A DNA stretch of 64,000 nucleotides from Ignavibacteriota bacterium (GCA_016219595.1 JACRLY010000062.1:71639-135638), one strand, 5' to 3'; counted from the stretch's first letter, positions 27,473 through 62,085 are shown. Translations and numbers: made by a program. The notes: generated by a model not told the origin, from the letters alone.

Positions 27473-30400
27473 TCAATTTCCTAAAAATATTCCCACCGAT
27501 TTGTTTGCCCAATATAATATTGGTTCGTACCAGATTCCGAGTACAAGTGTTGGGATTACCAAAAGCAGAAGCATTACGACGCTCATAGGTGAAAATGAAA
27601 GTGGTTCATGTTCTTTGTCGAGTCCGCGGAGGAACATGTTTCTCACGACTTTGACATAATAGAACAATGACACAACAGAGTTCAGCACACCGACTACAGC
27701 CAGCCATATATAATTTGCATTGATGACTGCAATAAAGAGATACCATTTACCGATGAATCCCGCTGTAGGAGGTAATCCCGTTAGTGAAATCAGGAATATA
27801 ACCATGCACACTGCAAGAACAGGCGACCTGTAACCGATTCCTGTGTAATCATCGAGTTCTTCACTTCCGATTTTATTCGCGAAGAGCATTACAACATAGA
27901 AAGCACCGAGGTTCATAAACATATAAACCACGAAGTAAATCAGTATGGAAGCTACCCCGGCATCAGTCATCACAACTACACCCATAAGCATATACCCTGC
28001 ATGAGCGATGCTTGAATAAGCAAGCAGACGCTTCAGGTTAGTCTGCCAAACTGCAACAAGATTACCGAATGTCATAGTCAGAACAGACAGAATTGCAATA
28101 ATAAATTTCCAGTCAATGGTGCTGAGCAGTTTCCATGTATCAGCGGCAACAGGGCTCGTATGGTCGAAGAATGCAACTTTAAGAAATCTTATTAGTATTG
28201 CGAAACCCGCCGCTTTGGATGCAACCGAAAGCAGTGCAGTGATTGTTACCGGTGCACCTTCGTAAACATCAGGTGTCCAAAAATGGAAAGGAACTGCTGA
28301 AATTTTATATCCGATTCCTGCAATTATCATTATTCCAGAAATCAGTAGTGGAAACATTTCTGCTTTGCCATGTGCGATTGCATAGTTTATATCATATAAA
28401 TTTAAAGAGCCTGTCAATCCGAATAAAATCGAAATTCCGTACAGCATAATTCCTGAAGACACTGCTCCGAAAATCACATACTTCAGCGATGCTTCGCTTG
28501 ACCTTTTTATTTCTTTTGTATATCCGGCGAGTATGTATGAACTAATTGACATTGTCTCGATTGATAAGTAAATCATAATCAGGTTCGAGGCGCCCGAAAG
28601 TAAAAACATACCGAATGTCATGCCTGCAATCAGCGAAAAATATTCTCCGAGCCGTCTGTCTTTTTCATAAAGTTCTTTTGAAAAGAAAGACATCAGTACA
28701 ACGATGAAGCTCGATATGAGAATTACCCATTTGAAGAATTTCGCAAAAGGGTCAACAGCGAGCATCTTCGAAAATACGACGCTGTTCTGGTTTCCTGCAG
28801 TACAAAGAAATATTCCGGTTACGATAAATCCAATTAGTAAAATAATACCGGATATGTTTTTCGATTTTCTGAAAATTAAGTCAACTATCAGAGCAACCAG
28901 GAAAGTTGCAACCAGAGCCGTTTCCGGCTCAAGCATTGCATTCGGCTGAATGCCGAGATAAATAACAATCAATGCTAGAGGTGTCAAAGCAACTAATTCG
29001 ACTGCATTCAAATCATCGGTTTTGTATTTCTTGTGCGTTGGGTCCCAGGGTCCTGCCCATTTTTCGGGAACCTGTCCGAAGAAAACTTTTTGCAAAGTCC
29101 ACAGCATATATCCGGCTCCCAATACGATACCGGTTGCAGCAATCATTGTTAAAGTCGGATTATATTGGAATGCTCCGAGGAAAACAAGAATTTCACTGAC
29201 AAATCCGCTCAATCCCGGCAATCCGATAGCTGCCATGAATGATATTGTCATTAGTCCTGTGTATATCGGCATCTTGTTTGCCATTCCGCCGAAGTCATCT
29301 AATCCTCTTGTATGGCTTCTGTCGTAGAGAACTCCTACAACCATGAAGAGCATAGCAGTGATTGTACCATGGTTGAACATCTGGAGAATTGCTCCTTCCA
29401 TACCGGATGTATTCAATGCCGCCATTCCGAGTACAACAAATCCCATGTGGCTGACTGATGAATAGGCAATCAGCTTTTTGAAATCACGCTTACCTACCCT
29501 GTGCTGTCCCAGGGCACACAAGGCACCATATACAATACTGACTACACCCACCAATGCAATAAACCACTGGAAATATTTGACAGCATCCGGGAACATGGGC
29601 CAGCTTATTCTCATCATTCCGTAAGTACCCATTTTCAGAAGGACTCCAGCAAGAATCACGCTGATTGGTGTCGGTGCTTCCACATGTGCGTCTGGAAGCC
29701 ATGTATGGAATGGTACAGAGGGCACTTTGATTGCAAATCCCACGAATAGAGCCATGAACGCTATATACCGCCAGGTAGTATCAACTCCGAACAAGATTGA
29801 ATTTGGGTTGTATTTTGACGGGTCCATCATGTCGAGCATATTGAATGAACCGACTGCAAAGAATAATGCAATCATAACGAGAAGCATGAATACGCTTCCG
29901 AACAATGTATATAAGAAAAACTTTATAGCTGCATATTCTTTTCTCGGACCACCCCAGATACCAATCAGGAAGTACATAGGCAGTAGCATCAATTCCCAGA
30001 AAACATAGAAGAGGAAGAAATCGAGTGCCACAAAAACACCCATCATTCCTGCATCCAACAGGAGATACATTGCGAAATAACCCTTCAATGCTTTTGAAAC
30101 GCTGAACGATGAAAATGATGCCACAAAGCAAACGATAGCAGTAAGCAATACCATTGGGGCACTGATTCCGTCAATTCCGACGTAATAATCAATCCTGACA
30201 TTGCCAAGCAAAGGCAATCCGTAAAGATAAATCCATTTGAATTTATCTACGAATTGGAAACCGGACGGGTCATTAATACCCGCTTTGTGATAATTATAAT
30301 TAATATAAATCAGTATGGCTATTACCAACTGTAAAAATGTAAATATTATGGTCACCCATCTGAAAAGCAGTTTCGAAACTTCTTTACTACGTTCATCCTT

Positions 30401-30490
30401 TCCTGAAGGGATGAGTAATATCAATACCATTCCCAACAGCGGCAAGAAGGTAATCCATGTTAGAGGTCCCATGCCGAAAATCTGAAACAT
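27473..30490 (-). CDS. nuoM/nuoN: NADH-quinone oxidoreductase subunits M and N encoded as one continuous 1005-codon ORF (NuoM-NuoN fusion or lost stop)
   Basis: The N-terminal ~515 aa are NuoM-like ([28 protein letters not shown]). The C-terminal ~485 aa are NuoN-like ([21 protein letters not shown]...). The junction, ...[23 protein letters not shown]..., has no stop. Met519 (codon 28934-28936) could act as an internal NuoN start. Confidence 0.8.
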   Translation of the reverse strand: [1005 protein letters not shown]

Positions 30491-30542
30491 TAATCCTCCG
30501 GAAAAATATATTTATTCATAATAATTTTATCAATTTTTTTTT

Positions 30543-30674
30543 GAATAGCCACTACTTTTAAGTAGTGGATTAGTTCCACTACCAGTCAGGGATTTATCCC
30601 TTTAACTAAAAAAGTGACTAAAGTCAAAATTGTATCTTAAATCTTACACCACTATCTAAAGATAGTGGCTATTC
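30543..30674. repeat. MITE-like element, family B copy 1 (132 bp, ~12-bp terminal inverted repeats GAATAGCCACTA)
   Basis: The left end is gaatagccactacttttaagtagtgg and the right end is ccactatctaaagatagtggctattc. A homologous copy lies at 48106-48230. Confidence 0.7.
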
Positions 30675-30710
30675 ATTTTATCTTTAAAAGAACAATCCTA
30701 TACTTCTATT

Positions 30711-32960
30711 TCAAACAAAAAAGTAAATCAACAGCATCACACCAATCACTACAAAAACAAGGTATGTCTGCACTCTGCCTGTCTGGACTTTACGGAACAT
30801 AGCTCCGAAAAATCCGGTTACATTTGCCGACAGGTTAACAAAACCATCTATTACTATATTATCAAAATGTCCTATAAAATATGAAAATCCTCTGGTTACA
30901 AAAGCAGTCAGGTTAACCATTCCATCAATCAGGTACAGGTCAAACCATGCAAGCACTTTCGAGAATCCCACAGTTCCTGCTACAACAGTGGCATGATAAA
31001 TCTCATCGAAATACCATTTCCTGAATGAGAATTGGTGAAGTTTTGGAAATTGTTTTGCCATGTTGTCAGCATTGAAAATTTTAAACTGGTACACCATGAA
31101 TGAGAACAATATCCCGAATCCAGCAATTAAGATTGAAAGAATCATAGCAGGATTATGCGCATGGTGCATCTGTTCTTCGAATTTATTCAAATAGTGATGT
31201 CCACCACTGTGAGTTGTTCCATGCTTTGTATTCTGCGTCATTTCCGGTGTATGTGTACCCCCTGCATTTGAGGCGGGGGTCATAACATTTTCATTCTTGT
31301 GATGTCCGCAATCTCCCTTACATTCACCCTCTTTGCAACTATGCTTCATTGCCATTATGTAAGGGCTTTCCCCTTTTTCAGTAGGAGTAAGGAAATTGAA
31401 CTGGTATTTTGCCGGTACTGCCGTTTGCGGTACAGGTAAATTCTTAACAAACCAGCCCTTATTTGCATCAGTCGGATTCGGTGAATAGAAGAACCAGAAA
31501 GATAATACTGCAAGCAATACCAAAGGAAATACTATGACAAATTTATTTTCATGTGTGTTTTTAGCTATTTCGGTTTTATGCTCTCCGTGGAAAGCAACTA
31601 TTGTCAGACGGAACATATAAAACGCAGTCATACCCGCCGCTGTAAATCCGGCTATCGGGATAAACCAATGCCCGCTCAACTGGGCAAATGCGAGTGTTCC
31701 GGCAAGGATACCGTCTTTACTCAAAAATCCCGATGTCAAAGGTACACCGGACAATGCAAACGTGGCAAACAGGAATGTCATATATGTCAGAGGCATCGTC
31801 CTTCTCAATCCGCCCATATTATTAATATCCTGCGGGTCAGTGTGATGGTCATGGAATTTGTGCATCGAATGATGCATCGCATGAATCACTGAGCCGGAAG
31901 CAAGGAATAATGCTGCTTTGAACCAGGCATGCGTTACAAGATGGAAAAAGCCGGTTGTATAGGAACATGCACCCAAAGACATAATCATAAATCCCAACTG
32001 GCTGACAGTTGAGTAAGCAAGCACTCTCTTGAAGTCAACTTGTGTAATAGCAATCGTGGCTGACATGAATGCAGTGAATGCTCCTACATAAGCAATCGTA
32101 GTAAGTGCATCAGCAGAAAACATGGGGAATACCCTTGCCACGAGATAAACACCTGCAGCGACCATTGTCGCGGCGTGAATCAATGCACTCACTGGCGTTG
32201 GACCTTCCATAGCATCCGGCAGCCAAACGTGTAGTGGAAATTGAGCCGATTTGCCGATTGCACCGCAGAAAATAAATACACCTTACAGAGTAAGCCAGAA
32301 TCCACTATTGAACGGCAAATGACCGCCTGCTATTCCTGCAAAAATTTCATCGAAGAAAACAGTGTTATATGTCAAGAATAAAATCAGTATACCTGCGAAA
32401 AATCCGAAGTCGCCAATCCTGTTGACTAAAAATGCTTTCTTCCCTGCGTCGGATGCGGATTTCTTTTCGTACCAGAAGCCGATTAATAAATAAGAACTGA
32501 CACCGACAAGCTCCCAGAATATATACATAAATAAGAAGTTATTTGCAATTACTATTCCGAGCATAGAGAAAGTAAACAATCCAAGATATGCGAAGTAACG
32601 CGAATATCTTTTATCATCAGCCATATATTCTGTCGAAAACAAATGCACCAGGAAACTGATTAATGTAACGACAATCAGCATCATTGCAGCGAGGTTATCA
32701 ATTAAAATACCGACTTTAATATTCGTATTACCCAGGTTAAGCCAATTTATTTTGGTTTGAATAACATTCATATCGGCAAAAGTTGTCAACTTGGTATATA
32801 ATATGAAAACTGAAAGGAGTACATCAATACCGATAATAGTAACTGCCAGCCAACTACTCATTCTTCCCAGCCGCTTACCGAAGAAAATGTTAATCACAAA
32901 TCCGAACAGCGGGAACACTAATACAAATGCCGCAAGATATAATAATGTGTCAGGTGTCAT
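30711..32960 (-). pseudogene. nuoL: NADH-quinone oxidoreductase subunit L interrupted by an in-frame TAA (codon at 32283-32285); ORF pieces are 32283..32960 and 30711..32282
   Basis: The two ORFs are in the same frame. Hand translation across the gap gives ...[48 protein letters not shown]..., a contiguous and conserved NuoL sequence with a single stop. The downstream part also carries a His/Cys-rich insertion. Confidence 0.75.
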
Positions 32961-33200
32961 ATTTAACTATATATTTTATTCTTTAATATTTTCCTTTTTA
33001 ATAACCGTATCAGGAGTTACTACTGATACAACAAATATTTAATCCCTACGGGATATTTATTGTAGAGTTTATACATCATCTATAAACATATAATCACTAC
33101 GTGATAATTTAATATTCAATTCAAAGTACATTTCTTGTTTCAATTCAGCATTCAGAATTCAGCATTCAGAATTTTCAATTGTGAATTGTTAATTTTTTAT
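32961..33200. repeat. Intergenic repeat element, family A copy 1 (nuoK-nuoL spacer)
   Basis: It shares these modules with the copies at 34048-34319 and 37705-38069: tcaggagttact(a/c)ctga palindrome, atttaatccctacgggata, ...atataatcactac..., caaagtaca(a/t)ttct, ttcagcattcagaattcag. Confidence 0.7.
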
Positions 33201-33509
33201 TTATTCTTTCATTCTGTCTATTTCATCAACATTCACGTGCTTGTAATTCTGATATATATTCAGCACGATTGCCAGGGCAACGGCAGCTTCAGCAGCGGCA
33301 AGTATAATCACAAAAATCGCCGCAACGTGTCCTTCTATATTCATTCCGCCATATTTGGCGAATGCAATGAAATTTATATTAGCTGAATTCAATACAAGCT
33401 CAAGCCCCATCAAAACCATAATCGCATTCTTACGGGTTATGATACCGAAGATGCCCAGTCCGAAAAGGATTACGCTTAAAATCAAGTAATGTGTAAGTCC
33501 GATGCCCAT
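33201..33509 (-). CDS. nuoK: NADH-quinone oxidoreductase subunit K
   Basis: 102 aa with three TM helices and a typical NuoK pattern (GLELVLNSANINFIAF...AAAEAAVALAIVL). Confidence 0.88.
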   Translation of the reverse strand: MGIGLTHYLILSVILFGLGIFGIITRKNAIMVLMGLELVLNSANINFIAFAKYGGMNIEGHVAAIFVIILAAAEAAVALAIVLNIYQNYKHVNVDEIDRMKE

Positions 33510-33534
33510 TTTATTTCCTAAATATTTTTCATGT

Positions 33535-34047
33535 TTAATTAATATTTTTCTTTCTTCTTGCTATCATTGCTGCACCGATAATTGCAATCAATAAGAGCAC
33601 AGATGCTGCTTCGAATGCGAGAAGGTAATCAGTCAATAACATTCTGCCGATTGGTGAAATTGTGTCTTTAAGTGGTTCTGCATCTCTTATAAACCATTTT
33701 ACATTTGAGTACATCACACCAAGTGTTATAGTGAGTATTGCTACAGCTATACCTGTAATACCTAACTGCATTTTCCCTATCAATCCTGATTTAATGTCAA
33801 CTCCGGTGATTCTTGTAGTTAACATAACACCGAAAATGATTAATACAAGAATTCCGCCTATATAAATCATTATCTGTGTCAACGCAAGAAAATCTGCATT
33901 CAGAAGAACATAAATCGCTGCCACTCCGAAAAAAGTGAACAGCAGAGAAAATGCCGAATACATTATGTTCTTGGAAAACACTACTACCATTGCCGATGCT
34001 ACAATCAGCACGGCAAAGAAATAAAATATTATTGTGATTAAATCCAT
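33535..34047 (-). CDS. nuoJ: NADH-quinone oxidoreductase subunit J
   Basis: 170 aa, hydrophobic, NuoJ-like (SAMVVVFSKNIMYSAFSLLFTFFGVAAIYVLLNADFLA). Confidence 0.85.
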   Translation of the reverse strand: MDLITIIFYFFAVLIVASAMVVVFSKNIMYSAFSLLFTFFGVAAIYVLLNADFLALTQIMIYIGGILVLIIFGVMLTTRITGVDIKSGLIGKMQLGITGIAVAILTITLGVMYSNVKWFIRDAEPLKDTISPIGRMLLTDYLLAFEAASVLLLIAIIGAAMIARRKKNIN

Positions 34048-34319
34048 ATCAAATTTTTATATGTTATTTCAATTCATTTTCTATTTTTTTCCGTGTCAGG
34101 AGTTACTCCTGACACCTGTTTTTTTTGTAGGGGTTGAAAATTTTCAACCCCTACATATATTTTTAATATTAATTCTCTGTGTTCTTTGTGAATTTCTTTG
34201 TGACCTTTGTGGTAAAAAATTCTCATCAAACACAATATTTAATCCCTACGGGATAATTTAAATTCAAATCAAAGTACAATTCTTATTAATAATTCAGCAT
34301 TCAGAATTCAGAATTTTAA
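34048..34319. repeat. Intergenic repeat element, family A copy 2 (nuoI-nuoJ spacer)
   Basis: It contains gtgtcaggagttactcctgacac, gtaggggttgaaaattttcaacccctac, ctctgtgttctttgtgaatttctttgtgacctttgtgg, atttaatccctacgggata, caaagtacaattct and ttcagcattcagaattcag. Confidence 0.7.
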
Positions 34320-34937
34320 TTATCCATTATCAATTTTCAATTCGCCCGATTCCTGCTTAGGTGCTTCCGCTGCTTTTGCCGCTTCAGCCGCTTTCTTAGC
34401 CTCTGCTTCTTTCTTTGCTTTTTCTGCCTGGAAATTAGCCAGAAGTTCTTTCTTCTGCTGAATTTCTTCGTCAGTCATAGTCGAGAATTTATAGAACAGG
34501 TTATTCCTGTCATAAGCAGAATATTCAAATTCCGTTGTCATCTTTATTGCCTCTGTCGGACATGGTTCAATGCACAGTCCACAGAAACAGCATTTTGCAA
34601 AATCAAGTGTATAACTCGGCACCCATAAGCCGCGTTTTTCACCATTCTTCAATGGAGGTGCATCTCCGGGTACAACCTTCAGAGTTTGAACCGCAATGCA
34701 ATTCACAGGACAAGCCCTGGCACATCCGTTACAGCCGTTGCATAATTCCATGTCAACAAAAATCCTATTGCGGGCATTCATTGGCATCTTATCGCCGCTT
34801 GCTTTTTCAAGTGGATGCTTGTTCGGATATTGCACTGTAACATTTTTTGCAAATAAATGCATAAAGGTGATTTTCATACCGACAAGTACGGTATAAACAC
34901 CCAACCATATATTATTAAAGTACTTTTTCATTTTCAA
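34320..34937 (-). CDS. nuoI: NADH-quinone oxidoreductase subunit I (2x[4Fe-4S]) with a Lys/Ala/Glu-rich C-terminal tail
   Basis: 205 aa with CNGCNGCARACP and CCFCGLCIEPCP ferredoxin motifs. The tail is KAKKEAEAKKAAEAAKAAEAPKQE. Confidence 0.88.
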   Translation of the reverse strand: MKMKKYFNNIWLGVYTVLVGMKITFMHLFAKNVTVQYPNKHPLEKASGDKMPMNARNRIFVDMELCNGCNGCARACPVNCIAVQTLKVVPGDAPPLKNGEKRGLWVPSYTLDFAKCCFCGLCIEPCPTEAIKMTTEFEYSAYDRNNLFYKFSTMTDEEIQQKKELLANFQAEKAKKEAEAKKAAEAAKAAEAPKQESGELKIDNG

Positions 34938-34972
34938 TTTGCCATTTCTAAATTTGACAATTTCTCACTAAT

Positions 34973-36052
34973 CTATTTCAACATTACCCAAAGCCCTACT
35001 GCAAAGAAGCAGATAAAAGCTATTGGTGTCATTACTTTCCAGCTTACTCCCATCAATTGGTCAACCCTCAATCTCGGCAGTGTCCATCTCAGCCAAATCT
35101 GAACAAATACGAATACAAATGATTTGGATATAAACCAGAACACACCCCAGATCGGACCATTCATAAAATCACCGAAGGGAGAGTTCCAGCCCCCGAAGAA
35201 AAGAATTGACAGCAGTGCCGATACAACAAACATATTAGCATATTCGGCGAAGAAAAACATAGCGAATTTCATTCCGCTGTATTCTGTGTGATAACCGGCA
35301 ACGATTTCCGATTCTCCTTCTGGTATATCGAATGGCGTTCTGTTAGTTTCCGCCAATGAAGCAACAAGGTAAAGTAAAAACATTCCAAGTGTGAACGGAA
35401 TAACTAATAATTTCCAGATTGAACCGGGACCTCCAAATACATACCAGTTCCAGAACCAGCCCCCCTGGTTAGCATTTATTACCTGCAAGTTCATACTGCT
35501 TGCAAGTATAACTATACTCAAAATCACAATTGCTGCTGGTATTTCATAACTAATTATCTGGGCAACAGAACGCAATGCACCAAGAAGTGAATATTTGTTA
35601 TTCGATGCCCATCCGCCCATTACAAGTCCTATTACTGCAAGAGAACCCATGGCGAAAATATAAAACAATCCTAAGTTAATTCCTGCAGGCACAAAATTCG
35701 AACTGAACGGAATAACTGCAAATCCTGCGTAAGCCGCTGTGAACATCAGGAAGGGAGCCATATTAAACAAAGGTTTGTTTGCCGCATCAGGAGTAATGTC
35801 TTCCTTCTGCAATAGCTTCACAACTTCAGCAACAGGTTGTATTATTCCCCATGGACCTGTCCTCATCGGACCCAGTCTCTCTTGTATAAAAGCTGATATT
35901 TTCAATTCACCAAGAATTGCAACCAATGCATAAACAATCAAAAATACGAGTGGCAATGTTACAACTAATATCAGTGCAATCAGTTCACTGCTCGAGAGTT
36001 TTGCCACCCAATCATAAAATGTAAGTATTTGATGTTCCATTTTTCCGTTCAA
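34973..36052 (-). CDS. nuoH: NADH-quinone oxidoreductase subunit H
   Basis: 359 aa polytopic protein. The NuoH/ND1 signature ...ERLGPMRTGPWGIIQPVAEVVKLLQKED...AETNRTPFDIPEGESEIVAGYHTEYSG is present. Confidence 0.9.
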   Translation of the reverse strand: MNGKMEHQILTFYDWVAKLSSSELIALILVVTLPLVFLIVYALVAILGELKISAFIQERLGPMRTGPWGIIQPVAEVVKLLQKEDITPDAANKPLFNMAPFLMFTAAYAGFAVIPFSSNFVPAGINLGLFYIFAMGSLAVIGLVMGGWASNNKYSLLGALRSVAQIISYEIPAAIVILSIVILASSMNLQVINANQGGWFWNWYVFGGPGSIWKLLVIPFTLGMFLLYLVASLAETNRTPFDIPEGESEIVAGYHTEYSGMKFAMFFFAEYANMFVVSALLSILFFGGWNSPFGDFMNGPIWGVFWFISKSFVFVFVQIWLRWTLPRLRVDQLMGVSWKVMTPIAFICFFAVGLWVMLK

Positions 36053-36065
36053 TAAAAATTAAATA

Positions 36066-37217
36066 TTACCTGTCAACTTCTCCTAAAACAATATCAACGC
36101 TTCCGAGTATCATGATTAAATCAGCGAACAAATATCCCTTAGATATTTCAGGAAGGACACTCAGATTTACAAAACTTGTTCCCCGCGATTTGATTCTTTC
36201 CGGTTTATCCGTTCCGTTGCTGACTATATAAAATCCAAGTTCACCTTTGGGATTCTCTGCTTTCGTATAAATTTCACCTTTCGGAGGTCTTACTTTTTTC
36301 GGTAGTTTCTCCCTAACGTCTCCGTCCATCGGCATTTGTTCAATTGCCTGTTCGATTATTCGGCAGCTTTGCTCCATCTCATGGAAACGGACTATGTTTC
36401 TGTCGAAGCAATCGCCGACAGTTCCCACTTCACCGCGACCTGTTACTACATCAAAATCAAACCTGTCATATATAGAATAAGGTGCGTCTTTTCTCAAATC
36501 AAAAGCTAAACCTGAACCACGCACTACCGGACCACTGCATCCAAAATTTACAGCCACATCGGCAGGAAGTATTCCCACATTTGCAACTCTTTCGATGAAT
36601 ATTTTATTATATAATAGCAGGTCAGCGATTTCCTTATTTGTTTCTCTTACTTGTTTAACTATTTTCAGAACGTCTTCTTTAAATTCCTTATGTACATCTG
36701 CCGCAAGTCCTCCAACCCAGAAATAATTGTAAAGCAATCTTCCGCCGGAAGCTTTTTCGAAAATCGAAAGAATGAATTCCCTGTCGCGGAATAAATATAG
36801 AAATGGAGTAAATGCACCTGCATCGAGACCAAAGGTGGCAACAGCAATCTGGTGATTGGCAATCCTGTTCAATTCTGCCATGATTACCCTTATGTATTCC
36901 ACCTTTTCCGGCACTTCTATTTCCATCAGTTTTTCCATACCCATTACGTAGGGCCACTCATTGTTCATCGCAGATATGTAATCCATCCTGTCAATGTAAG
37001 GAATTACCTGCGGATATGTCATTTTCTCGCAATGTTTTTCGAAACACCTGTGCAGGTACCCGATATGAGGAATAACCTCTGTTACAATTTCTCCGTCAAG
37101 CTCGACTTCGAGTCGCAGCACACCATGTGTCGAAGGGTGCTGTGGACCAACATTCAGTCGCATCCTCTCGGAATCAATCTGACTATATTCAAACTCTACT
37201 TTCTTTGTTTCACTCAC
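36066..37217 (-). CDS. nuoD: NADH-quinone oxidoreductase subunit D
   Basis: 383 aa with the NuoD signature (MRLNVGPQHPSTHGVLRLEVELDGE...; ends ...LGEVDR). Confidence 0.9.
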   Translation of the reverse strand: MSETKKVEFEYSQIDSERMRLNVGPQHPSTHGVLRLEVELDGEIVTEVIPHIGYLHRCFEKHCEKMTYPQVIPYIDRMDYISAMNNEWPYVMGMEKLMEIEVPEKVEYIRVIMAELNRIANHQIAVATFGLDAGAFTPFLYLFRDREFILSIFEKASGGRLLYNYFWVGGLAADVHKEFKEDVLKIVKQVRETNKEIADLLLYNKIFIERVANVGILPADVAVNFGCSGPVVRGSGLAFDLRKDAPYSIYDRFDFDVVTGRGEVGTVGDCFDRNIVRFHEMEQSCRIIEQAIEQMPMDGDVREKLPKKVRPPKGEIYTKAENPKGELGFYIVSNGTDKPERIKSRGTSFVNLSVLPEISKGYLFADLIMILGSVDIVLGEVDR

Positions 37218-37324
37218 TATATTATACCTTAACTTTTTTATTTCTATTTTCTTCTTCTCTAATCATTTAAAATTTGATAATAAACATTCATTTAAAATTC
37301 AAAATTTAAAATATATAATTTTTT

Positions 37325-37704
37325 TTAATACGGCACTTTCATACCGTGATATTCATCCGGCTGAACATAATCTTTTCTCAATGGAAAACCTTCCCAGTCA
37401 TAAGGACAACAGAAGATACTACAGGATTATCCTTAGACAAAGTTACTTTCAATACAAATGAATGTTTCAATTTTACTGAATAAAGATGATATACAACTCC
37501 GAGATTCTCTTTGTAATCCATACCGCCCAACAGTGAAAGGTAATCAAAATCGAGGTCGGGTGTATCTCTCAGATATAAGCATATATCGAACAATTTCTCT
37601 GGATTCACCTGAACAAAAGGGTCAAAAAAAGGTTCCTGCTTAAATTCGATTATTGCATCGCCGAATTCCGCTTTCAATTTCTCATATATTTCCTGAGCCA
37701 ACAT
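37325..37704 (-). pseudogene. nuoC: NADH-quinone oxidoreductase subunit C with an internal deletion/frameshift
   Basis: The N-terminal 100 aa are NuoC-like (…VVYHLYSVKLKHSFVLKVTLSKDNPVVSSV) and stop at 37378. The conserved C-terminus YDWEGFPLRKDYVQPDEYHGMKVPY* is present in another frame at 37325-37385. The ~30-aa core (WxERExxDxFGI…GHPxLRRIL) between the two pieces is missing. Confidence 0.65.
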
Positions 37705-38069
37705 ATTTCTTTTAAATTTTAAATTATAAATTTTGAATTAACTGTGTCAGGAGTTACTCCTGATACCTTTATTGTTATGTAGTGGTTGAAAATTTTCAAC
37801 CCCTACATTTTATTTTCTATTATCAATTCTCTGTGTTCTTTGTGAATTTCTTTGTGCTCTTTGTGGTTAAAAAATTCTTATCAAACACAATATATAATCC
37901 CAAGGGGATAATCATTGTAGTTGAGATACATCTTCTATAGACATATAATCACTACATTATAAATATTTTTATTCAAAGTACAATTCTCTTTTTAATGGAT
38001 TCTGAACAAATCCTTCGACTACGCTCAGGATGACATTGTTCAGAATGACATTTTAGCTATTAGTAATTA
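37705..38069. repeat. Intergenic repeat element, family A copy 3 (nuoB-nuoC spacer)
   Basis: It contains ctgtgtcaggagttactcctgatacc, gtagtggttgaaaattttcaacccctac, ctctgtgttctttgtgaatttctttgtgctctttgtgg, ataatcccaaggggataat, catataatcactac and caaagtacaattctct. Confidence 0.7.
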
Positions 38070-38612
38070 TTAATTAGTAATTAGTAATTCTTTTTGTTCT
38101 TCTTCAGCAATCCTTTTCCTTTTATTGAAAATCGCCTGCTTATTTATCTTTTCCTGCAATCTCATCATACCCTCTTCCAATGCTTCAGGTCTTGGAGGAC
38201 ATCCCGGAACATAAACATCCACAGGAATAATCCGGTCAACACCCTTCAGCACATGATAACCGTGCTCCCAGTAAGGACCGCCGGAATTGGCACATGATCC
38301 CATAGAAATAACATACTTAGGTTCAGCCATCTGTTCGTATAGCTTCTTGATTCTTTCCGCCATTTTGAAAGTAACAGTTCCGGAAATGATAATGAAGTCT
38401 GCCTGGCGTGGCGAGGTACGTGGAATGCATCCGAATCGCATAAAATCGAAATGCGATGCATTCACTGCCATAAATTCGATTGCACAGCAAGCCAATCCAA
38501 ACTGGAGGTACCAGTCCGATTTGCTTCTGCCCCAATTTAATATGTCTTCAACTTTTCCTAATATTATTCCGCCGCCGTAGTATGGATCGTCTAATTTATT
38601 CAATAAACCCAT
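38070..38612 (-). CDS. nuoB: NADH-quinone oxidoreductase subunit B
   Basis: 180 aa with the NuoB signatures [11 protein letters not shown]…[11 protein letters not shown]…GCPPRPEAL. Confidence 0.9.
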
Positions 38613-38633
38613 TAATTCACCGTAAAATTATTA

Positions 38634-39107
38634 TTAACTCTTTTTCGTAACCACAAGGTCTTTCAGCGATGGTATGTATGGTCTCGGTTTTTCCCAGTTC
38701 AAATCGCCTTTTGCCCAAACATACGCCAGTCCCGCAAGTAAAATCACTACGAACACAACCATCTCAATAAATGCAAACCACAAAACCGTATCACCGATTC
38801 TGCTCATATCCCTGAATACGACTGCCCAGGGGAACAGGAAAACCACTTCCACATCAAACAACAAAAACACAAGAGCAATTACATAGAACCTGATATTGAA
38901 CTTAATCCACGGATTGCCAATCGGCTCTTCGCCGCATTCGTAAGTTGATTGTTTAACGGGATTGGGATGGTGGGGTCTTATGATTGCCGCTGTGATTAAG
39001 CCGGCGGCTACGAAAACAACACCCAGTATAAAAAATAGTAATATTATTCCAAATTCACTTAACATAAACACCTTCTTATCAATCATCAAAGTCGGTAAAT
39101 AAAACAT
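38634..39107 (-). CDS. nuoA: NADH-quinone oxidoreductase subunit A
   Basis: NuoA-like (…YECGEEPIGNPWIKFNIRFYVIALVFLLFDVEVVFLFPWAVVF). The true start is probably an internal Met (MLSEFG…) downstream of 39107. Confidence 0.85.
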   Translation of the reverse strand: MFYLPTLMIDKKVFMLSEFGIILLFFILGVVFVAAGLITAAIIRPHHPNPVKQSTYECGEEPIGNPWIKFNIRFYVIALVFLLFDVEVVFLFPWAVVFRDMSRIGDTVLWFAFIEMVVFVVILLAGLAYVWAKGDLNWEKPRPYIPSLKDLVVTKKS

Positions 39108-39502
39108 GACAATAGCAATAAATTGTCATTAATAAACTACTAAATTAAAAAATCGTTCCAAGAAAAATAAATTATTTTGTATTAGGTTTATTTCGTTGAG
39201 AGTTATGAAAGCAGAATTTTGCTAAAAAATTGATACATAGAGATTTAGCTATACCTAAAAAAATAACATTGCAGGATTTTTTTCTCCCCATTCCCTTAAA
39301 CCCTGTGTTGCTCTGTGAATAACTCTGTGCTACATAGAAAACTGATTGTTCTGATAAAACAGCTTAGCTCAGTTCCTTGAAAATCAGTTGCATCTGTGTT
39401 ATCATGTGTCCTATTATTAAATTTGATAACCACCATTCAAAATTCAAAATTTTATTTAATAACAACCATCTTCCCATTTATTGCCTGCCCATCTAATTGC
39501 AA

Positions 39503-40606
39503 TCAGCAAACAACCACCTGCTCCATTCTTCCTAATTGCCTCATCATTTTACCATGATTCCATATCGCATGTAAAAAGTTCTTTTGAGTATTATAACGGA
39601 TATTAAATTCTCTTGCAGTTTCAGATGATATTTCCGATAATTTCCTGTAATGCACATGACAGATACCCGAAAAGAGATGGTGTTCCACCTGGTGGTCCAA
39701 ACCACCTATCAACCATGAAAATACCCTGCTTTTAGGACCATAATTCGTAGTGGTTCCCATTTGATGGACAAACCAATTATTATCAATATGTTTTTCTGTA
39801 TTGGGCATAGGAAATTCTGTAGTAGGCATAATATGAGCCGTTTGGAAAATCGTACTGAGAGTTAATCCTGAGGTCAAATGCATTGCAATAAATCCGGCAA
39901 TAACCAGCCATGGAGAAACAGGAATCAAAACTATCGGCAGTACAAGTATATAACCATAATATACTAATTTCCATAAAATTATCTGAAAAATGTCTTTCAC
40001 AAGTTGATTTTTACTATTAATCAGCCCCATTTTCCTGAATTTTATTACCTGGATAAAATTTCTTGAAGTCACCCAGTTTAATGTTGTTATACAATATATA
40101 AACCAAACATAGATGTGTTGAAAACGATGGAACCAGTATCTCTTCTGATAAGGCGAAAAACGCAGGATAAATGGAGGGAGGATATCCTCATCTGAACCAT
40201 CAATATTAGTAAATATATGATGAAGGACATTGTGCTGGATTTTCCATACAGAAGAATTAGCACCAATCAGGTTCATAGTATAGCTCAGGTACTTATTGAT
40301 TTTCCCGATTCTTGAATAAGCTCCGTGGTTGGCATCGTGCATGACTCCCATTCCTATGCCGCTTTTACCGAAACCCATAATAATCCACATAGGAATAATA
40401 AACCATGGATTAGTGATGAATCCTGTTAACATAAGCAAAAAAGGAGTGAGATATAATGAGAACATAAAAATTGTTTTAATTATCATATTCGCATTGCAAT
40501 ACATACCTTTATTATTCGATTTGAAATATTCATTCACTCTGCTTCTGAGTGTGCGGATAAAATCGGTATCCTTGTTATTTGAGAATTTATATTTATAGGT
40601 TTCCAT
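39503..40606 (-). CDS. Membrane fatty-acid desaturase family protein
   Basis: 367 aa with three histidine boxes (HDANHGA; HNVLHH; HQVEHHLF) and multiple TM segments. Confidence 0.75.
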   Translation of the reverse strand: METYKYKFSNNKDTDFIRTLRSRVNEYFKSNNKGMYCNANMIIKTIFMFSLYLTPFLLMLTGFITNPWFIIPMWIIMGFGKSGIGMGVMHDANHGAYSRIGKINKYLSYTMNLIGANSSVWKIQHNVLHHIFTNIDGSDEDILPPFILRFSPYQKRYWFHRFQHIYVWFIYCITTLNWVTSRNFIQVIKFRKMGLINSKNQLVKDIFQIILWKLVYYGYILVLPIVLIPVSPWLVIAGFIAMHLTSGLTLSTIFQTAHIMPTTEFPMPNTEKHIDNNWFVHQMGTTTNYGPKSRVFSWLIGGLDHQVEHHLFSGICHVHYRKLSEISSETAREFNIRYNTQKNFLHAIWNHGKMMRQLGRMEQVVVC

Positions 40607-40812: not shown

Positions 40813-42843
40813 TCACTTATTAATAATCATTTTCTTAATTTCAACCGATTCATTAGTGGTTATGCGACTTAAGTAAACTCCGCTTGGTGCTTCGGTTCCC
40901 GCATCAGTCCTGCCATCCCAGGTTGCTGTATGTTTTCCAGCCTCAATCACACCCGAAAACAAATCCCTCACCAATTGTCCTTGTGTATCGTATATTTTAA
41001 TTGTAATATTCCCTGTTTTCGGCAAAGTATATTCAATGTTTGTTGTGTACTGAAACGGATTTGGATAATTCTGAGTTATTATTTTTTCTTTTAGAGGTTG
41101 TTGTGGTTCATCCTCAACATCAAGTATCACACCCCCTTCACGAAAGACAACAAGACCACCACCCAAGGTCCCTATCCATTTATTATCGCTTTCGTCTATA
41201 GCTATTGACCAAATCCAGTTAGAAAGCAAGCCGGAATTTTTTGTGTTGAAAGTAGTCCAATTAACATCATCAAATTTAGCCAATCCGCCAGAAGTCCCAA
41301 TCCATTTATTGCCTTTACTGTCTATTGTTATTGACTCAACAAGTCCAACAGGTAATCCTGAATTAAGTTTATTGTAAGTAGTCCAGTTAGTTCCGTCGAA
41401 TTTAGCAATACCACTTTCCCAAGTCCCTATCCATATATTACTACTATCATCTATTGCTATTGTCAAGACATCATTACCTGGCAAACCTGAATTTAATTTG
41501 TTGTAAGTAGTCCAGTTAGTCCCATCAAATTTTGTTAATCCACCTCCAGTTCCAATCCACTTATTGCCAGCTCTGTCTATTGTTATTGACCATACATCGT
41601 CAAAGGGTAAGTCGGAATTTGATCTGTTGTAAGTAGTCCAGTTAGTCCCATTAAATTTTGTTAATCCACCTCTAGTCCCAATCCATTTATTGCCGGAAAG
41701 GTCTATTGCCATTGACAAAACAAGGCTATCCGGTAAGCCGGAATTTGATTTGTTGTAAGTAGTCCAGTTTGTCTCGTCAAATTTTGCTAATCCATCTCCA
41801 GTCCCAATCCACATAAACCCGGTTTCTTCAATTACAATTGACCGGATACTGTTATTTGGTAAACCGGAGTTTGATTTGTTGTAAGTAGTCCAGCTAATCC
41901 CGTCAAATTTTGCCAAACCGCCAAAAGTCCCAATCCACTTTTTCCCGGATTCGTCTATTGCTATTGGCTGGACATTGTTATTAGGCAAACCGGAATTTGA
42001 TATGCTGTTAGTAGTCCAGTTAGTCCCGTCAAATTTTGCTAAGTCGCCTGAAGTCCCAATCCACATATTACCAGTTTCGTCTATTACTATTGACTGGACA
42101 ATGTTATTAGATAAGCCCGAATTTGATTTGTTGTAAGTAGTCCAGTTAGTCCCGTCAAATTTTGCTAAGCCGCTAGAAGTCCCAATCCATGTATTGCCTT
42201 TTAGGTCTGTTGTTATTGACCAAATATAGTTACCAAGCAAGCCTGAATTTGTAGTATTGTAAATAGTCCAGTTAGTCCCATCAAATTTTGCTAATCCACC
42301 TCCATAAGTCCCAATCCACGTATTGTCTGTTCCACCTATTGCTATTGAGCGGACATCGTTATCAGGCAAGCTCGAATTTGATTTGTTGTAAGTAGTCCAG
42401 TTAGTCTCGTCAAATTTTGCTAATCCATCTCCCCAAGTCCCAATCCATGTATTGTTAGTTCCATCTATTGCTATTGATCGTACATAGTTACCAGGCAAGC
42501 CCGAATTTGATTTGTTATAAGTTGTCCAGTTAGTCCCGTCAAATTTTGCAATACCACTGTCCCAAGTCCCAATCCACTTATTACCGCTTCCATCTATTGC
42601 TATTGTATGGACATTGTTATCAGGCAAGTCTGAATTTGAACTATTATAGTAAATTTTAGTTCCTGATATTTTATCTAGTTTTACAATAAACACAGTAGTT
42701 CCAACCCAGATGTAATCACCTTCTTCAGCTAAGGCTGTTATATTATCTCCATCAGTATAATTCACCCACTCTGGATTTTGCGATTTGACATTCGATATGA
42801 TTACAAAAAAAGCAAGAAATGCACTCAACAACACATGCTTCAT
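40813..42843 (-). CDS. Two-component-regulator-propeller-type repeat protein with a T9SS C-terminal sorting domain
   Basis: 676 aa. It has about 16 tandem ~25-aa units (NKWIGT.GGLAKFDGTNWTTYNKSNSGLP.N.V.SIAID). The C-terminal ~80 aa match the T9SS sorting pattern (…GVYLSRITTNESVEIKKMIINK). Confidence 0.7.
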   Translation of the reverse strand: MKHVLLSAFLAFFVIISNVKSQNPEWVNYTDGDNITALAEEGDYIWVGTTVFIVKLDKISGTKIYYNSSNSDLPDNNVHTIAIDGSGNKWIGTWDSGIAKFDGTNWTTYNKSNSGLPGNYVRSIAIDGTNNTWIGTWGDGLAKFDETNWTTYNKSNSSLPDNDVRSIAIGGTDNTWIGTYGGGLAKFDGTNWTIYNTTNSGLLGNYIWSITTDLKGNTWIGTSSGLAKFDGTNWTTYNKSNSGLSNNIVQSIVIDETGNMWIGTSGDLAKFDGTNWTTNSISNSGLPNNNVQPIAIDESGKKWIGTFGGLAKFDGISWTTYNKSNSGLPNNSIRSIVIEETGFMWIGTGDGLAKFDETNWTTYNKSNSGLPDSLVLSMAIDLSGNKWIGTRGGLTKFNGTNWTTYNRSNSDLPFDDVWSITIDRAGNKWIGTGGGLTKFDGTNWTTYNKLNSGLPGNDVLTIAIDDSSNIWIGTWESGIAKFDGTNWTTYNKLNSGLPVGLVESITIDSKGNKWIGTSGGLAKFDDVNWTTFNTKNSGLLSNWIWSIAIDESDNKWIGTLGGGLVVFREGGVILDVEDEPQQPLKEKIITQNYPNPFQYTTNIEYTLPKTGNITIKIYDTQGQLVRDLFSGVIEAGKHTATWDGRTDAGTEAPSGVYLSRITTNESVEIKKMIINK

Positions 42844-48048: not shown

Positions 48049-48105
48049 TAATATCTCCGGTTCAAAATTATTATATCAGATATTTTCAATTAACAAGAAT
48101 CCAAT

Positions 48106-48230
48106 GAATAGCCACCACTTTTAAGTGTGGAAATGTTATTTACACAATATTGGATTTATCCACTTAAATCAATGACTAAAGCCATAATCAGATTAATAAC
48201 TTTCCCACTATCTAATGATAGCGGCTATTC
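48106..48230. repeat. MITE-like element, family B copy 2
   Basis: gaatagccaccacttttaagtgtgg … ccactatctaatgatagcggctattc. It is homologous to 30543-30674 and sits between the dsrC-like gene and the dsrM-like gene. Confidence 0.7.
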
Positions 48231-48260
48231 ACAATCAATGCAAAAGTTTTAATTCAATTA

Positions 48261-57162: not shown

Positions 57163-57186
57163 TCAATTAATAGATACTTTCACATA

Positions 57187-57223
57187 CTGCGTCAGGCTTA
57201 AGTGCTTGACGCAGTTTTTTTTT
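57187..57223 (+). terminator. Rho-independent terminator
   Basis: CTGCGTCAGG-cttaagtg-CTTGACGCAG followed by TTTTTTTTT. Confidence 0.8.
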
Positions 57224-58135
57224 ATTGTCTGAACTGTGATTTAGCTGATTAATCGGATTTCACAGATTTGAATTTTGGTTGTATGAAGCCAAAAAGGTGC
57301 AGATTTGTGCATCCGGAGCAGTTTTGACATCATTTTCATTTTTTGAATTTTAAATTCAACCTCACCGGAAAAGAAATTCTGAATTATGAATTCTGAATGC
57401 TGAATTGTGGTTATATTTAATTAATAATCCCTCTTGGTCTCCTTTTAATAAAGGGAGAAATTCCGTGAAACCCGGTAACGACTGGATTCAGCCCGACATT
57501 GTTTTGCAAAGAACGAGCGGGACAAAGTATAACCTCACCCTAAATCCCTCTCCGAAGGCGAGGGACTTTCCAAAACGGTATTCAAAGATATGGATCTGGG
57601 TGTGATATGTCAAGAAAACGGTTTTAAAATGGTTTTAAAATGGTTTTTAAAATATAGGCTGTAGACTGTAGGCTGTAGGGGGGAGAAGCAAATTTTAACA
57701 CAAAGAAGCACAAAGTGAAGACACGAAGGACGTAAGTTGTCTGAACCTGGATTAAACTGATTAATCGGATTTCGTTGATTTTTTTTATGAAGAAAGGCAA
57801 GTTTTAACACAAAGGACACGGAGGAAAGACACGAAGGACGCAGAGGAATTTTTAATTTTTAATTTAGAATTTTTAATGAATTTTTAATGTTTTAATTTTT
57901 AATTTATTTGGTGCACGCAGAGACGCGGAGCAGCGAAGGACGTAGAGGCACCACCCCTCGGTCCCCTCCTTAATTAAGGAGGGGAAGTTAAAGGGAGGTT
58001 TTTTTATAATACCCTCAACCCTGCCCTTCTCCCAGTGGGAGAAGGAAAAAAGGATATATGAAAATAATAATTGGGGAAAGTCTGTGCCGCGGATTAAAGA
58101 GAGAGTGGGAATGGAATGATAAATTAGAAATTTAT

Positions 58136-60830: not shown

Positions 60831-61098
60831 GATAAACTCTCTTATATATTATTATGATAATTTTTCATCGAACAATCCCTCCACTTCTTTTTCTCCTTCT
60901 AATCTTTTTGTACTGGATTTGAAAGTGAGCATTTCGCCGAGACCGGGGAGGCGGACGGAGCCAACGGGGTGCTGTTTGTTCAGTTCCTTGAGTACATCGA
61001 GGCAGTCGCCGAAATAGAGAGAGTTCATTTTTTTCCGAATTGATTATAAATAACAATGTAAAATAATGAATGGGAATGTGAAAGTCAAGGGAAAAATT

Positions 61099-61375
61099 GA
61101 AAAGTCGGAAGTTGGAAGTCGATAGTCGGAAGAGGGAAGGAGGAAGATAGATAATAGAAAATAGCAAATAGCAAATAGAAAATTGAAAAGCCGGAAGTTG
61201 GAAGTCGATAGTCGTTAGTCGGAAGAGGGAAGGAGGAAGATAGATAATAGAAAATAGTAAATAGCAAATAGAAAATAGAAAAGTCGGAAGTTGGAAGTCG
61301 ATAGTCGTTAGTCGATAGTCGGAAGAGGGAAGGAGGAAGATAGATAACAGAAAATAGCAAATAGAAAATTGAAAA
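61099..61375. repeat. Tandem repeat, three units of ~86-97 bp
   Basis: gaaaagtcggaagttggaagtcgatagtcg(ttagtcg)gaagagggaaggaggaagatagataatagaaaatagcaaatagaaaatt repeated three times. The ORFs 60865..61440 and 61085..61360 are translation artefacts of this repeat. Confidence 0.8.
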
Positions 61376-61390
61376 TTACCTTTATAATAT

Positions 61391-61760
61391 TTAAGAACAA
61401 GGATTAACGATTTATGATTTGAGAAGTCTATAACGTTCAACTCCTACGGAGTTGTGTTTGTTATCGGGGATTGTGTTTGTTACTAACGTTTAACTCCTAC
61501 GGAGTTATTCAAGGTTATATTTTATATTTGATGTGGAATTGAGGCTTTGGATTCCATTTCAAGAATGTAATGACAGTCAGGATTTAAGAAGAAGGATTAA
61601 CGATTTATGATTTGTGAAGTCTATAACGTTCAACTCCTACGGAGTTGTGTTTGTTATCGGGGATTGTGTTTGTTACAAACGTTTAACTCCTACGGAGTTA
61701 TTTCAAGGTTATATTTTATATTTGATGTGGGATTGAGGCTTTGGATTCCATTTCAAGAAT
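61391..61760. repeat. Direct tandem duplication of a ~185-bp unit containing the AACTCC-tac-GGAGTT hairpin twice
   Basis: Copy 1 (61391-61575) and copy 2 (61577-61760) are over 95% identical (…aggattaacgatttatgattt…aacgttcaactcctacggagttgtgtttgtta…aacgtttaactcctacggagtt…ggattccatttcaagaatg…). Confidence 0.8.
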
Positions 61761-62085
61761 GGAATGACAGAGTAATTACGAATTAAATAACTTCGCCTTC
61801 AATATATCCCTGATTTCTGCAAAATGCATTTAAACTTAATACAGGAGAATGAATAATAATCGGAATTATGAATATTATAATTAGTTTATTTTAATAATAA
61901 TTATAAAGACAGATTATAATATTTTGTTTTTTAATTTAAAATGACTATATTAACTTATATAAAAGGTTTGAATAGTTTGACCAACTTAAATGGTAAAATA
62001 TATATTAGGTGTTGGAAGTTGAAATTAAACTCAATTCAATAATATATTTAATAATTTTTTCACCATTTATTTAACGAGGTGCTAT

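Follow-up and report, generated by a model that had tools for sequence, protein, structure and literature searches.

Repeat mosaics with putative REP palindromes in the nuo operon of an Ignavibacteriota bacterium

How did an operon for complex I come to contain three long and similar intergenic spacers, and what are the repeats that fill them? The question is raised by a 64,000-nt stretch of DNA from an Ignavibacteriota bacterium (GCA_016219595.1, JACRLY010000062.1:71639-135638; hereafter the window; AT-rich, with a GC content of ~36%), which carries a nuo operon of 11 genes, all on the minus strand. The open reading frames (ORFs) flanking the spacers were named by Pfam, and the spacers are therefore those between nuoK and nuoL (K-L, 32961-33200), nuoI and nuoJ (I-J, 34048-34319) and nuoB and nuoC (B-C, 37705-38069). 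An original prediction, made from the sequence of the window, had taken them for copies of one modular repeat family, either insertions like miniature inverted-repeat transposable elements (MITEs) or structured RNA or regulatory elements. The comparisons presented here make it likely that they are lineage-specific mosaics, similar to bacterial interspersed mosaic elements (BIMEs), of several independent short-repeat families, gathered at a small number of permissive junctions in an operon that was compact in the ancestor. Repetitive extragenic palindromes (REPs) and their tyrosine transposases are already known; new is a lineage-specific instance in Ignavibacteria.

Shared modules of the three spacers

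Read on the sense strand, the spacers follow one order: stop codon, M6 heptamers, an optional M7/M9 hairpin, M5, M4b, ~30 nt, M4, M3, M2, M1, a leader of ~35 nt and the ATG. The common module order of the original prediction was thus borne out, with every listed module at its claimed place, and the limits given for single modules were confirmed as well: GGGTTGAAAATTTTCAACCCC is found only in I-J and B-C, atataatcactac in K-L and B-C, and ttcagcattcagaattcag in K-L and I-J. The sequence GTCAGGAGTTACTCCTGAC is exact in I-J and has one mismatch in B-C and three in K-L, with 0 occurrences expected in shuffled sequences; atttaatccctacgggata is exact in K-L and I-J and has three mismatches in B-C, and caaagtacaWttct is present in all three spacers. 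Within the ctctgtg...ctttgtg block the 28-mers at 34175 and 37829 are identical, and chance alone would not be expected to produce any of the long modules. The related fragments reported outside the spacers also exist, as CACAAAG-type repeats in opposite orientation at ~57698-57850 and a weak match to ctctgtgaat at 39312-39321.

The I-J and B-C spacers have a contiguous block of 169 nt in common (89% identity, E ~1e-41), and K-L shares 73 nt with I-J at 88% identity. The copies differ by gain or loss of whole modules, and homology among them begins and ends at module borders. Neither terminal inverted repeats (TIRs) nor common ends nor recognisable target duplications were found in the three spacers, and the comparison of filled with empty orthologous sites (B-C in the related assembly L140 against the window and two other relatives, RIFOXYC2 and WY4) defined no target duplication.

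Among the smaller modules, M4 and M4b form mini-hairpins of 5 bp around a CGTAG core; at one of their stem positions C-G, A-T and G-C were all seen, an indication that the palindromy is maintained. M4, the CACAAAG/CGCAAAG repeats, M7 (tgtcattctgaacttggttcagaatcc), M8 and M9 were all found at non-nuo loci of relatives, and the series heptamers, M4-type pair, CACAAAG repeats and hairpins follows unrelated genes in the same order at loci L015, L019 and L010. These small modules appear to be clade-specific companions, which follow stop codons in a fixed order. The arms of the two M7 variants have the heptamer sequences AATTCTG and AATGCTG, which suggests that the heptamer arrays may have arisen from hairpin arms as stutter copies. 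TACTTTG, a motif of M5, lacks one base of the Bacteroidetes -7 consensus, TAnnTTTG, and this near match was rejected as evidence of a promoter.

Putative REP identity of M1 and M2

M1 (GTGTCAGGAGTTACTCCTGACAC) is a 23-nt near-perfect palindrome with a 10-bp stem, and its consensus hairpin has a folding energy of -17.1 kcal/mol (z -5.3). Among 19 variants of the stem, 93% of the cells pair and five pairs are changed on both sides, and the observed score was reached in 0 of 500 shuffles. The exact pattern GTRTCAGGAGTTACTMCTGAYAC, searched in GTDB with one genome per species, was found at 19 loci, 17 of them in two metagenome-assembled genomes (MAGs), Ignavibacteria RIFOXYC2_FULL_35_21 (RIFOXYC2) and 'Bacteroidetes' WY4.bin46 (WY4), whose nuo DNA is 82-86% identical to that of the window. 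With up to three mismatches allowed, 30 of the 31 copies fall in intergenic DNA, and for 22 copies the two neighbouring genes run in the same direction. They are placed 26-75 nt 5' of the next start and, in short spacers, often only 3-11 nt after the upstream stop; M1 by itself occupies gaps of 70-100 nt in L001, L002, L006 and L010.

Beside M1, two related genomes carry an ORF of 178 aa (L009:7237-7773 and L011:2822-3358) that matches Pfam Y1_Tnp and scores 111 and 119 bits against the NCBIfam equivalog NF047646, REP_Tyr_transpos ('REP-associated tyrosine transposase', RAYT), the cut-off of which is 80 bits. The ORF has the motifs PNHIHV or PNHIHM, VWQDRYD and YIHNNP, with one to three M1 copies directly upstream and arrays of inverted variants directly downstream. 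A transposase gene flanked by inverted REPs defines a REPtron (Nunvar 2010, PMC2817692; Di Nocera 2013, PMC3733652; Quentin 2018, PMC6006769). Subclass 2.6 of the TnpA-REP proteins is characterised by NH[LIV]H, WQ and YIH[QN]NP and a length of ~179 aa; it is 'mostly present in Bacteroidetes', and its flanking 'atypical secondary structures' recur elsewhere in the genome (Quentin 2018, PMC6006769). By predicted motifs and length the M1-linked transposase, a REP-associated tyrosine enzyme of the HuH/Y1 type, fits this subclass, and M1 is accordingly taken as the putative cognate palindrome of a subclass-2.6 protein. M1 is like the REPs of REPtrons in being an intergenic near-perfect palindrome, mostly between co-directional genes, with a stem kept by compensatory changes; copies are scattered through at least two related genomes, where inverted copies border a single Y1/HuH transposase gene.

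In the K-L spacer of RIFOXYC2 (L004:4262-4580), a direct duplication of 101 nt takes in the first 14 nt of nuoL (ATGACACCTGACAC), and these 14 nt match the 3' arm of a local M1 variant, GGTGTCAGGTGTAACACCTGACACGG. This suggests recombination of the nuoL start with a REP.

M2 has GTAG at its 5' end and CTAC at its 3' end, and three G-C pairs form the bottom of its stem (I-J copy, GTAGGGGTTGAAAATTTTCAACCCCTAC). The pattern GGTTGAAAATTTTCAACCCCTAC was found in at least 120 metagenome contigs with a GC content of 30-64% and unrelated flanks. Among the 120 loci listed, 30 encode a RayT-like Y1 transposase, and all 43 palindromes of these 30 loci are linked to the gene, 33 lying within its span and 10 no more than 300 nt away. 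Inside the genes M2 is read in frame as VGVENFQPL and stands both between the HuH and Tyr motifs and to either side of them. The proteins contain NHVH, WQRNYYEH and YIINNP and score 58-64 bits on NF047646, which makes them related yet places them under the equivalog cut-off; their relatives bear the JGI (Joint Genome Institute) label 'REP element-mobilizing transposase RayT'. Subclass 2.4, common in Cyanobacteria and Bacteroidetes, has GT[AG]G...C[TC]AC double-foot REPs in frame within tnpA-REP (Quentin et al. 2018, PMC6006769), and M2 appears to be this published double-foot GTAG type, as tied to subclass-2.4 TnpA-REP. The likeness extends to the feet, the identical copies inside or beside RayT genes and a family common in Bacteroidota-type genomes; unlike the published REPs, M2 is present as a single intergenic copy in each of two nuo spacers, with no subclass-2.4 gene in the 64 kb. 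When folded, both palindromes give very stable hairpins (M1 -17 and M2 -21 kcal/mol). Their putative REP identity is founded on direct tests, in related as well as unrelated genomes, together with the published definitions.

At metagenome loci L032-L138 (among them L051:363-728, L115:5248 and L073:162-773), RayT-like genes contain M2 or GTAGGGGCAGAAAATTTTCTGCCCCTAC palindromes in frame, whole or as halves, in numbers from one to many. These inserts encode VGVENFQPL or VGAENFLPL, sometimes tandem VGVEN, at several loop positions, in proteins of 178 to ~320 aa. In-frame palindromes in RayT-like genes were previously described for subclass 2.4 (Quentin et al. 2018, PMC6006769).

Turnover and origin of the spacers

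The junctions B-C, C-D, I-J, K-L and L-M measure 99-560 nt in RIFOXYC2, WY4 (with its near-twin L142) and SCSM01000045 (L140, 95% NuoJ identity), and the A-B, D-H, H-I, J-K and M-N junctions 13-43 nt in the same four related assemblies. In the window, C-D (~112 nt) is a further gap that the original prediction had missed. I-J is 99 nt long in L140, where it holds only heptamers and M7, against 272 nt in the window; RIFOXYC2, which lacks M1 there, has 337 nt, and WY4, with an internal duplication, 560 nt. M1 at B-C is common to the window, RIFOXYC2 and WY4 and is absent in L140. Orthologous junctions thus differ by whole modules at ~15% genome divergence, and orthology between relatives is limited to the leader ahead of each ATG. 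In more distant relatives every junction is 15-40 nt (L145, 71% NuoJ identity) or most are 3-54 nt (L146, 67%), which bears out the earlier statement that the repeats sit inside a normally compact operon. As the distant relatives are mostly compact, the nuo operon was ancestrally so, and the long spacers are a clade feature with rapid turnover of modules. An assembly artefact as their source was ruled out because five independent assemblies have the same architecture.

Several junctions of L144 (73% NuoJ identity) are filled by other palindromes. In this Ignavibacteria-like genome (ERZ27249449 k141_1676600), the palindromes at I-J, J-K, L-M and M-N include several copies of ttaccaagcgggagcttggtaa and, at M-N, four M7-like copies. 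Since its junctions are also palindrome-filled, REP-like elements seem to have landed repeatedly in nuo intercistronic junctions.

According to the mechanism described in the literature, the transposase, acting in trans, would cut and rejoin the palindromes as single-stranded DNA hairpins, and REPs would therefore spread without TIRs or target duplications; at nuo, the repeats would have accumulated at a few permissive junctions. It had been proposed that elements without terminal repeats or duplications would be ordinary regulatory sequence. None were found, yet the argument is inapplicable to REPs because these move without leaving either. The spacers resemble E. coli BIMEs and the mosaic intergenic DNA found in Neisseria, in which REP palindromes and short motifs likewise stand in recurring order between operon genes and vary between strains. 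They are nevertheless not members of the BIMEs: classical BIMEs alternate REP orientation with fixed, conserved linkers, whereas each nuo spacer has one M1 in constant orientation and adds unrelated palindromes, mini-hairpins and heptamer arrays.

Several observations weigh against this interpretation. M1 differs from the REPs of known REPtrons in its Ignavibacteria lineage and in its modest copy number (11 in RIFOXYC2 and 7 in WY4, counting exact matches only). The GT[AG]G or CGTC foot that classical REPs usually have is missing from M1 (flank AAACC next to GTGTCAGG), which is consistent with the 'atypical' structures of subclass 2.6. The transposase of M1 lies in relatives and not in the window: no RAYT gene was detected in the 64 kb by tblastn with both RAYT types, and the sole window match of a subclass-2.4 protein is the M2 palindrome itself. 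The three M1 copies of the window are all in the nuo operon, so that dispersal is established in the relatives only and not in the source genome. M2 and exact M3 were not found in ~180 kb from relatives (19 genome loci and L140-L146); these have GTAGGGGCAGA... and CGCAAAG variants in their place, and the nuo spacers of RIFOXYC2 carry canonical GTAG REPs (GTAGGGGCAGA...TCTGCCC) at the corresponding positions. Furthermore, the account of M3 to M6 is descriptive as to their identity and origin, and recombination, not transposition, could have carried the 169-nt M1-M2-M3-M4 block from one of the I-J and B-C spacers to the other.

If each spacer were a copy of one composite non-autonomous MITE (~170-300 nt), inserted whole and later decayed, the contiguous 169 nt of I-J and B-C would be accounted for, as would the M6-M5-M4b-x-M4-M3 order that recurs at several junctions and at L015, L019 and L010; the adjacent L-M spacer, moreover, contains a true TIR-bounded element with a second copy at 48105-48231. 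Such an origin is nevertheless unlikely. The spacers are like MITEs in being small, non-autonomous, dispersed repeats in intergenic DNA, and unlike them in having no TIRs, defined ends or target duplications; homology breaks at module borders, M1 stands alone in the gaps of L001, L002, L006 and L010 and M2 in many unrelated genomes, and orthologous junctions at ~15% divergence differ by whole modules. Of the predicted MITE-like insertions, the dispersed, mobile-type repeats therefore stand and the MITE does not, the modules occurring independently; nor is one repeat family supported in the sense of copies of a single MITE, as the modules are combined differently at orthologous junctions. The presence of M1, M4, M7, M8 and M9 at many non-nuo loci, the widespread, RayT-linked M2 of unrelated genomes and the cognate transposase of M1 leave hardly any probability to a purely local likeness, in which ectopic recombination or gene conversion within the operon spread one ancestral spacer to the other junctions with no mobility, even though, among the Ignavibacteria sequences examined, M2 with exact M3 is confined to I-J and B-C of the window and the K-L spacer of RIFOXYC2 has its local 101-nt duplication including the nuoL 5' end.

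The spacers might also be selected cis-regulatory sequence of nuo (internal promoters, attenuators or structured RNA), with the repeat likeness secondary. B-C, I-J, K-L and L-M are expanded in all close relatives, M1 in the nuo spacers keeps a constant orientation 35-46 nt 5' of the next start codon, and L144, from another lineage, has palindrome-filled junctions as well. The I-J and B-C spacers, moreover, fold far better than shuffles (z -6.8 and -5.9; K-L, with its degenerate M1, z -1.6). This reading is improbable all the same. The content is unconserved, I-J measuring 99 (L140), 272 (window) and 560 nt (WY4) with different modules; the same modules occur at unrelated loci, and relatives at ~70% NuoJ identity manage without spacers. 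Rfam 15 gave no match at gathering thresholds in the whole window, nor at E<=1 in 30400-39600. The sequence that comes after M1 and M2 on the nuo sense (minus) strand is A-rich, and T-runs are present only on the plus strand (a T8 run after the I-J M1 hairpin); intrinsic terminators at M1 and M2 were thus absent from the sense strand, with hairpin-plus-T configurations on the antisense strand only, and the sense-strand hairpins, having no U-tracts, should not terminate transcription. Internal promoters were rejected: a scan gave 53 sigma-70-like sites against 31 expected, a modest excess, and the best sense site (CTGACA-16-TATAAT at 37750-37723) is lost in RIFOXYC2 and WY4.

If the spacers are BIME-like mosaics, they would be transcribed as part of the nuo polycistron, their hairpins could serve as exonuclease barriers or processing or stabilising points, and the downstream genes, with translational coupling broken, would rely on their own conserved A-rich leader of ~35 nt. 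Intra-operon REPs of E. coli (malE-malF; REP325 of yjdM-yjdN) stabilise upstream mRNA and partly attenuate read-through (bioRxiv 10.64898/2026.03.23.713779). The nuo hairpins are alike in being stable and placed between co-transcribed genes, whereas the nuo spacers are far longer and composite, with M1 near the downstream start and not just past the upstream stop. By analogy, the hairpins are probably decay barriers or processing points on nuo mRNA, and the spacers probably uncouple translation of adjacent cistrons. It is doubtful, though a little less so than the composite MITE, that the REP-type elements, by putting stable hairpins free of U-tracts and long untranslated gaps at module boundaries, divide the complex I polycistron into segments (nuoAB, CDHI, JK, L and M) that are each stabilised and translated separately, thereby setting subunit stoichiometry, and that the mosaics are retained for it. 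If so, elements would turn over while segmentation persists, giving expanded junctions at the same places in every clade member, and segmentation would also account for another Ignavibacteria lineage filling its nuo junctions with different palindromes.

REP/RAYT biology, studied mainly in Proteobacteria, would with these spacers be documented in Ignavibacteria, where two putative REP types (subclasses 2.6 and 2.4) and companion repeats pile up in an essential respiratory operon. Junction contents differ among close relatives and are missing in distant ones, a natural experiment that could show the effects of intra-operon REPs on polarity, mRNA stability and translational coupling. Such mosaics would explain unusually long operon gaps in Ignavibacteria, and can mislead operon prediction and MAG assembly.

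Feature coordinates, neighbouring genes and further repeats

Table 1. Coordinates of the nuo genes, spacer modules and other repeats in the window
Feature	Position	Strand	Remarks
nuoA	38634-39107	-	
nuoB	38070-38612	-	
nuoC	37378-37704	-	
nuoD	36066-37217	-	
nuoH	34973-36052	-	
nuoI	34320-34937	-	
nuoJ	33535-34047	-	
nuoK	33201-33509	-	
nuoL	30711-32960	-	
nuoM/N	27473-30490	-	
K-L spacer	32961-33200	-	heptamer array, M5, M4b, x, M4, degenerate M1, leader
K-L M1 copy, GTATCAGTAGTAACTCCTGATAC (sense)	33007-33029	-	3 changes, 2 compensatory; ends 46 nt 5' of nuoL ATG; -8.4 kcal/mol
K-L CGTAG hairpin pair	33035-33107	-	M4 ATCCCGTAGGGAT 33035-33056; M4b ATCACGTAGTGAT 33086-33107; ~30 nt between
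K-L M5 and M6 arrays	33119-33198	-	M5 aaatgtactttgaat 33119-33133, then M6 (AATTCTG/AATGCTG/AATTGTG) up to nuoK stop
I-J spacer	34048-34319	-	heptamers, M5, M4, M3, M2, M1, leader; RNA fold z -6.8
I-J M1 copy	34093-34115	-	equals consensus of related genomes; 45 nt 5' of nuoJ ATG; -17.1 kcal/mol
I-J M2	34127-34154	.	putative perfect 28-nt 'double-foot' GTAG REP GTAGGGGTTGAAAATTTTCAACCCCTAC; -21.3 kcal/mol
I-J M3	34175-34212	-	CACAAAG/CACAGAG block
I-J M4, M5 and M6	34235-34317	-	M4 hairpin 34235-34256; M5 34267-34281; M6 array 34285-34317
B-C spacer	37705-38069	-	heptamers, nested M7/M9 hairpin, M5, degenerate M4b, x, M4, M3, M2, M1, leader; RNA fold z -5.9
B-C M1 copy	37744-37766	-	1 mismatch; 39 nt 5' of nuoC ATG; M1 also at orthologous position in RIFOXYC2, WY4
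B-C M2	37779-37806	.	putative double-foot REP, 1 mismatch; -14.5 kcal/mol
B-C M3	37829-37866	-	CACAAAG block; first 28 nt equal I-J copy
B-C M4, M4b and M5	37890-37985	-	M4 37890-37911; degenerate M4b 37941-37962; M5 37971-37985
B-C nested hairpin	37997-38050	-	M7-family outer arms tgtcattctgaac...gttcagaatcc around M9 gtcatcctgagcgtagtcgaaggat (38010-38034); both motifs dispersed in relatives
L-M element	30542-30675	.	134 nt; termini TGAATAGCCAC...GTGGCTATTCA; within nuoL-nuoM spacer 30491-30710
L-M element, second window copy	48105-48231	.	unrelated intergenic region
Intergenic mosaic, ~970 nt	57163-58135	.	outside operon; M6 57376-57406; CACAAAG/ACGAAGG ~57698-57850; M8 57963-57984; other palindromes

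The fourth large nuo spacer, between nuoL and nuoM, holds a different repeat that the original prediction had missed. This L-M element has perfect 12-nt TIRs, a conserved GGGATTTATCCC core and two conserved terminal hairpins, with compensatory changes in the hairpins (CCACTAC/GTAGTGG against CCACGAC/GTCGTGG). Further copies, often adjoining M1, are found at L018:3569-3707, L015:3052-3185, L011:5021-5151 and L007:1510-1643. The element gave no Rfam match and its target duplications were not recognisable; both a MITE and a structured RNA are possible and, unlike the K-L, I-J and B-C spacers, it looks MITE-like in its TIRs and conserved internal hairpins.

Three genes of the operon deviate from L140, the closest relative. 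A frame-shifting deletion of 97 nt in nuoC (37330-37420), by which a conserved ...IWRSADWHEREAYDMFGI... segment is lost, cuts the ORF to 108 aa and leaves the C-terminal PYDWEGFPLRKDY remnant out of frame, the lesion of either a pseudogene or an assembly error. In nuoL an in-frame TAA at 32283-32285, where L140 has TCA (Ser), results in ORFs of 225 aa and 499 aa. A deletion of 160 nt in nuoM/nuoN (27473-30490) takes the end of nuoM, the M-N spacer and the start of nuoN, giving a single fused ORF of 1005 aa. Three lesions in a single operon could mean that this copy of complex I is undergoing decay in the source genome, or else that the assembly is at fault.

Elsewhere in the window, dense arrays of 7-nt and 14-nt repeats (AAGTCGG/AAGTTGG and AATAGCA/AATAGAA) at 61088-61400 and 61389-61770 partly overlie an ORF of 191 aa (60865-61440), and the same region (61088-61770) has direct duplications of 121 nt and 69 nt with 98% identity. 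Tandem repeats of 126-129 nt at 41166-42686 lie within an ORF of 676 aa (40813-42843); they correspond to Reg_prop (two-component regulator propeller), and the protein has a type IX secretion system (T9SS) sorting domain.

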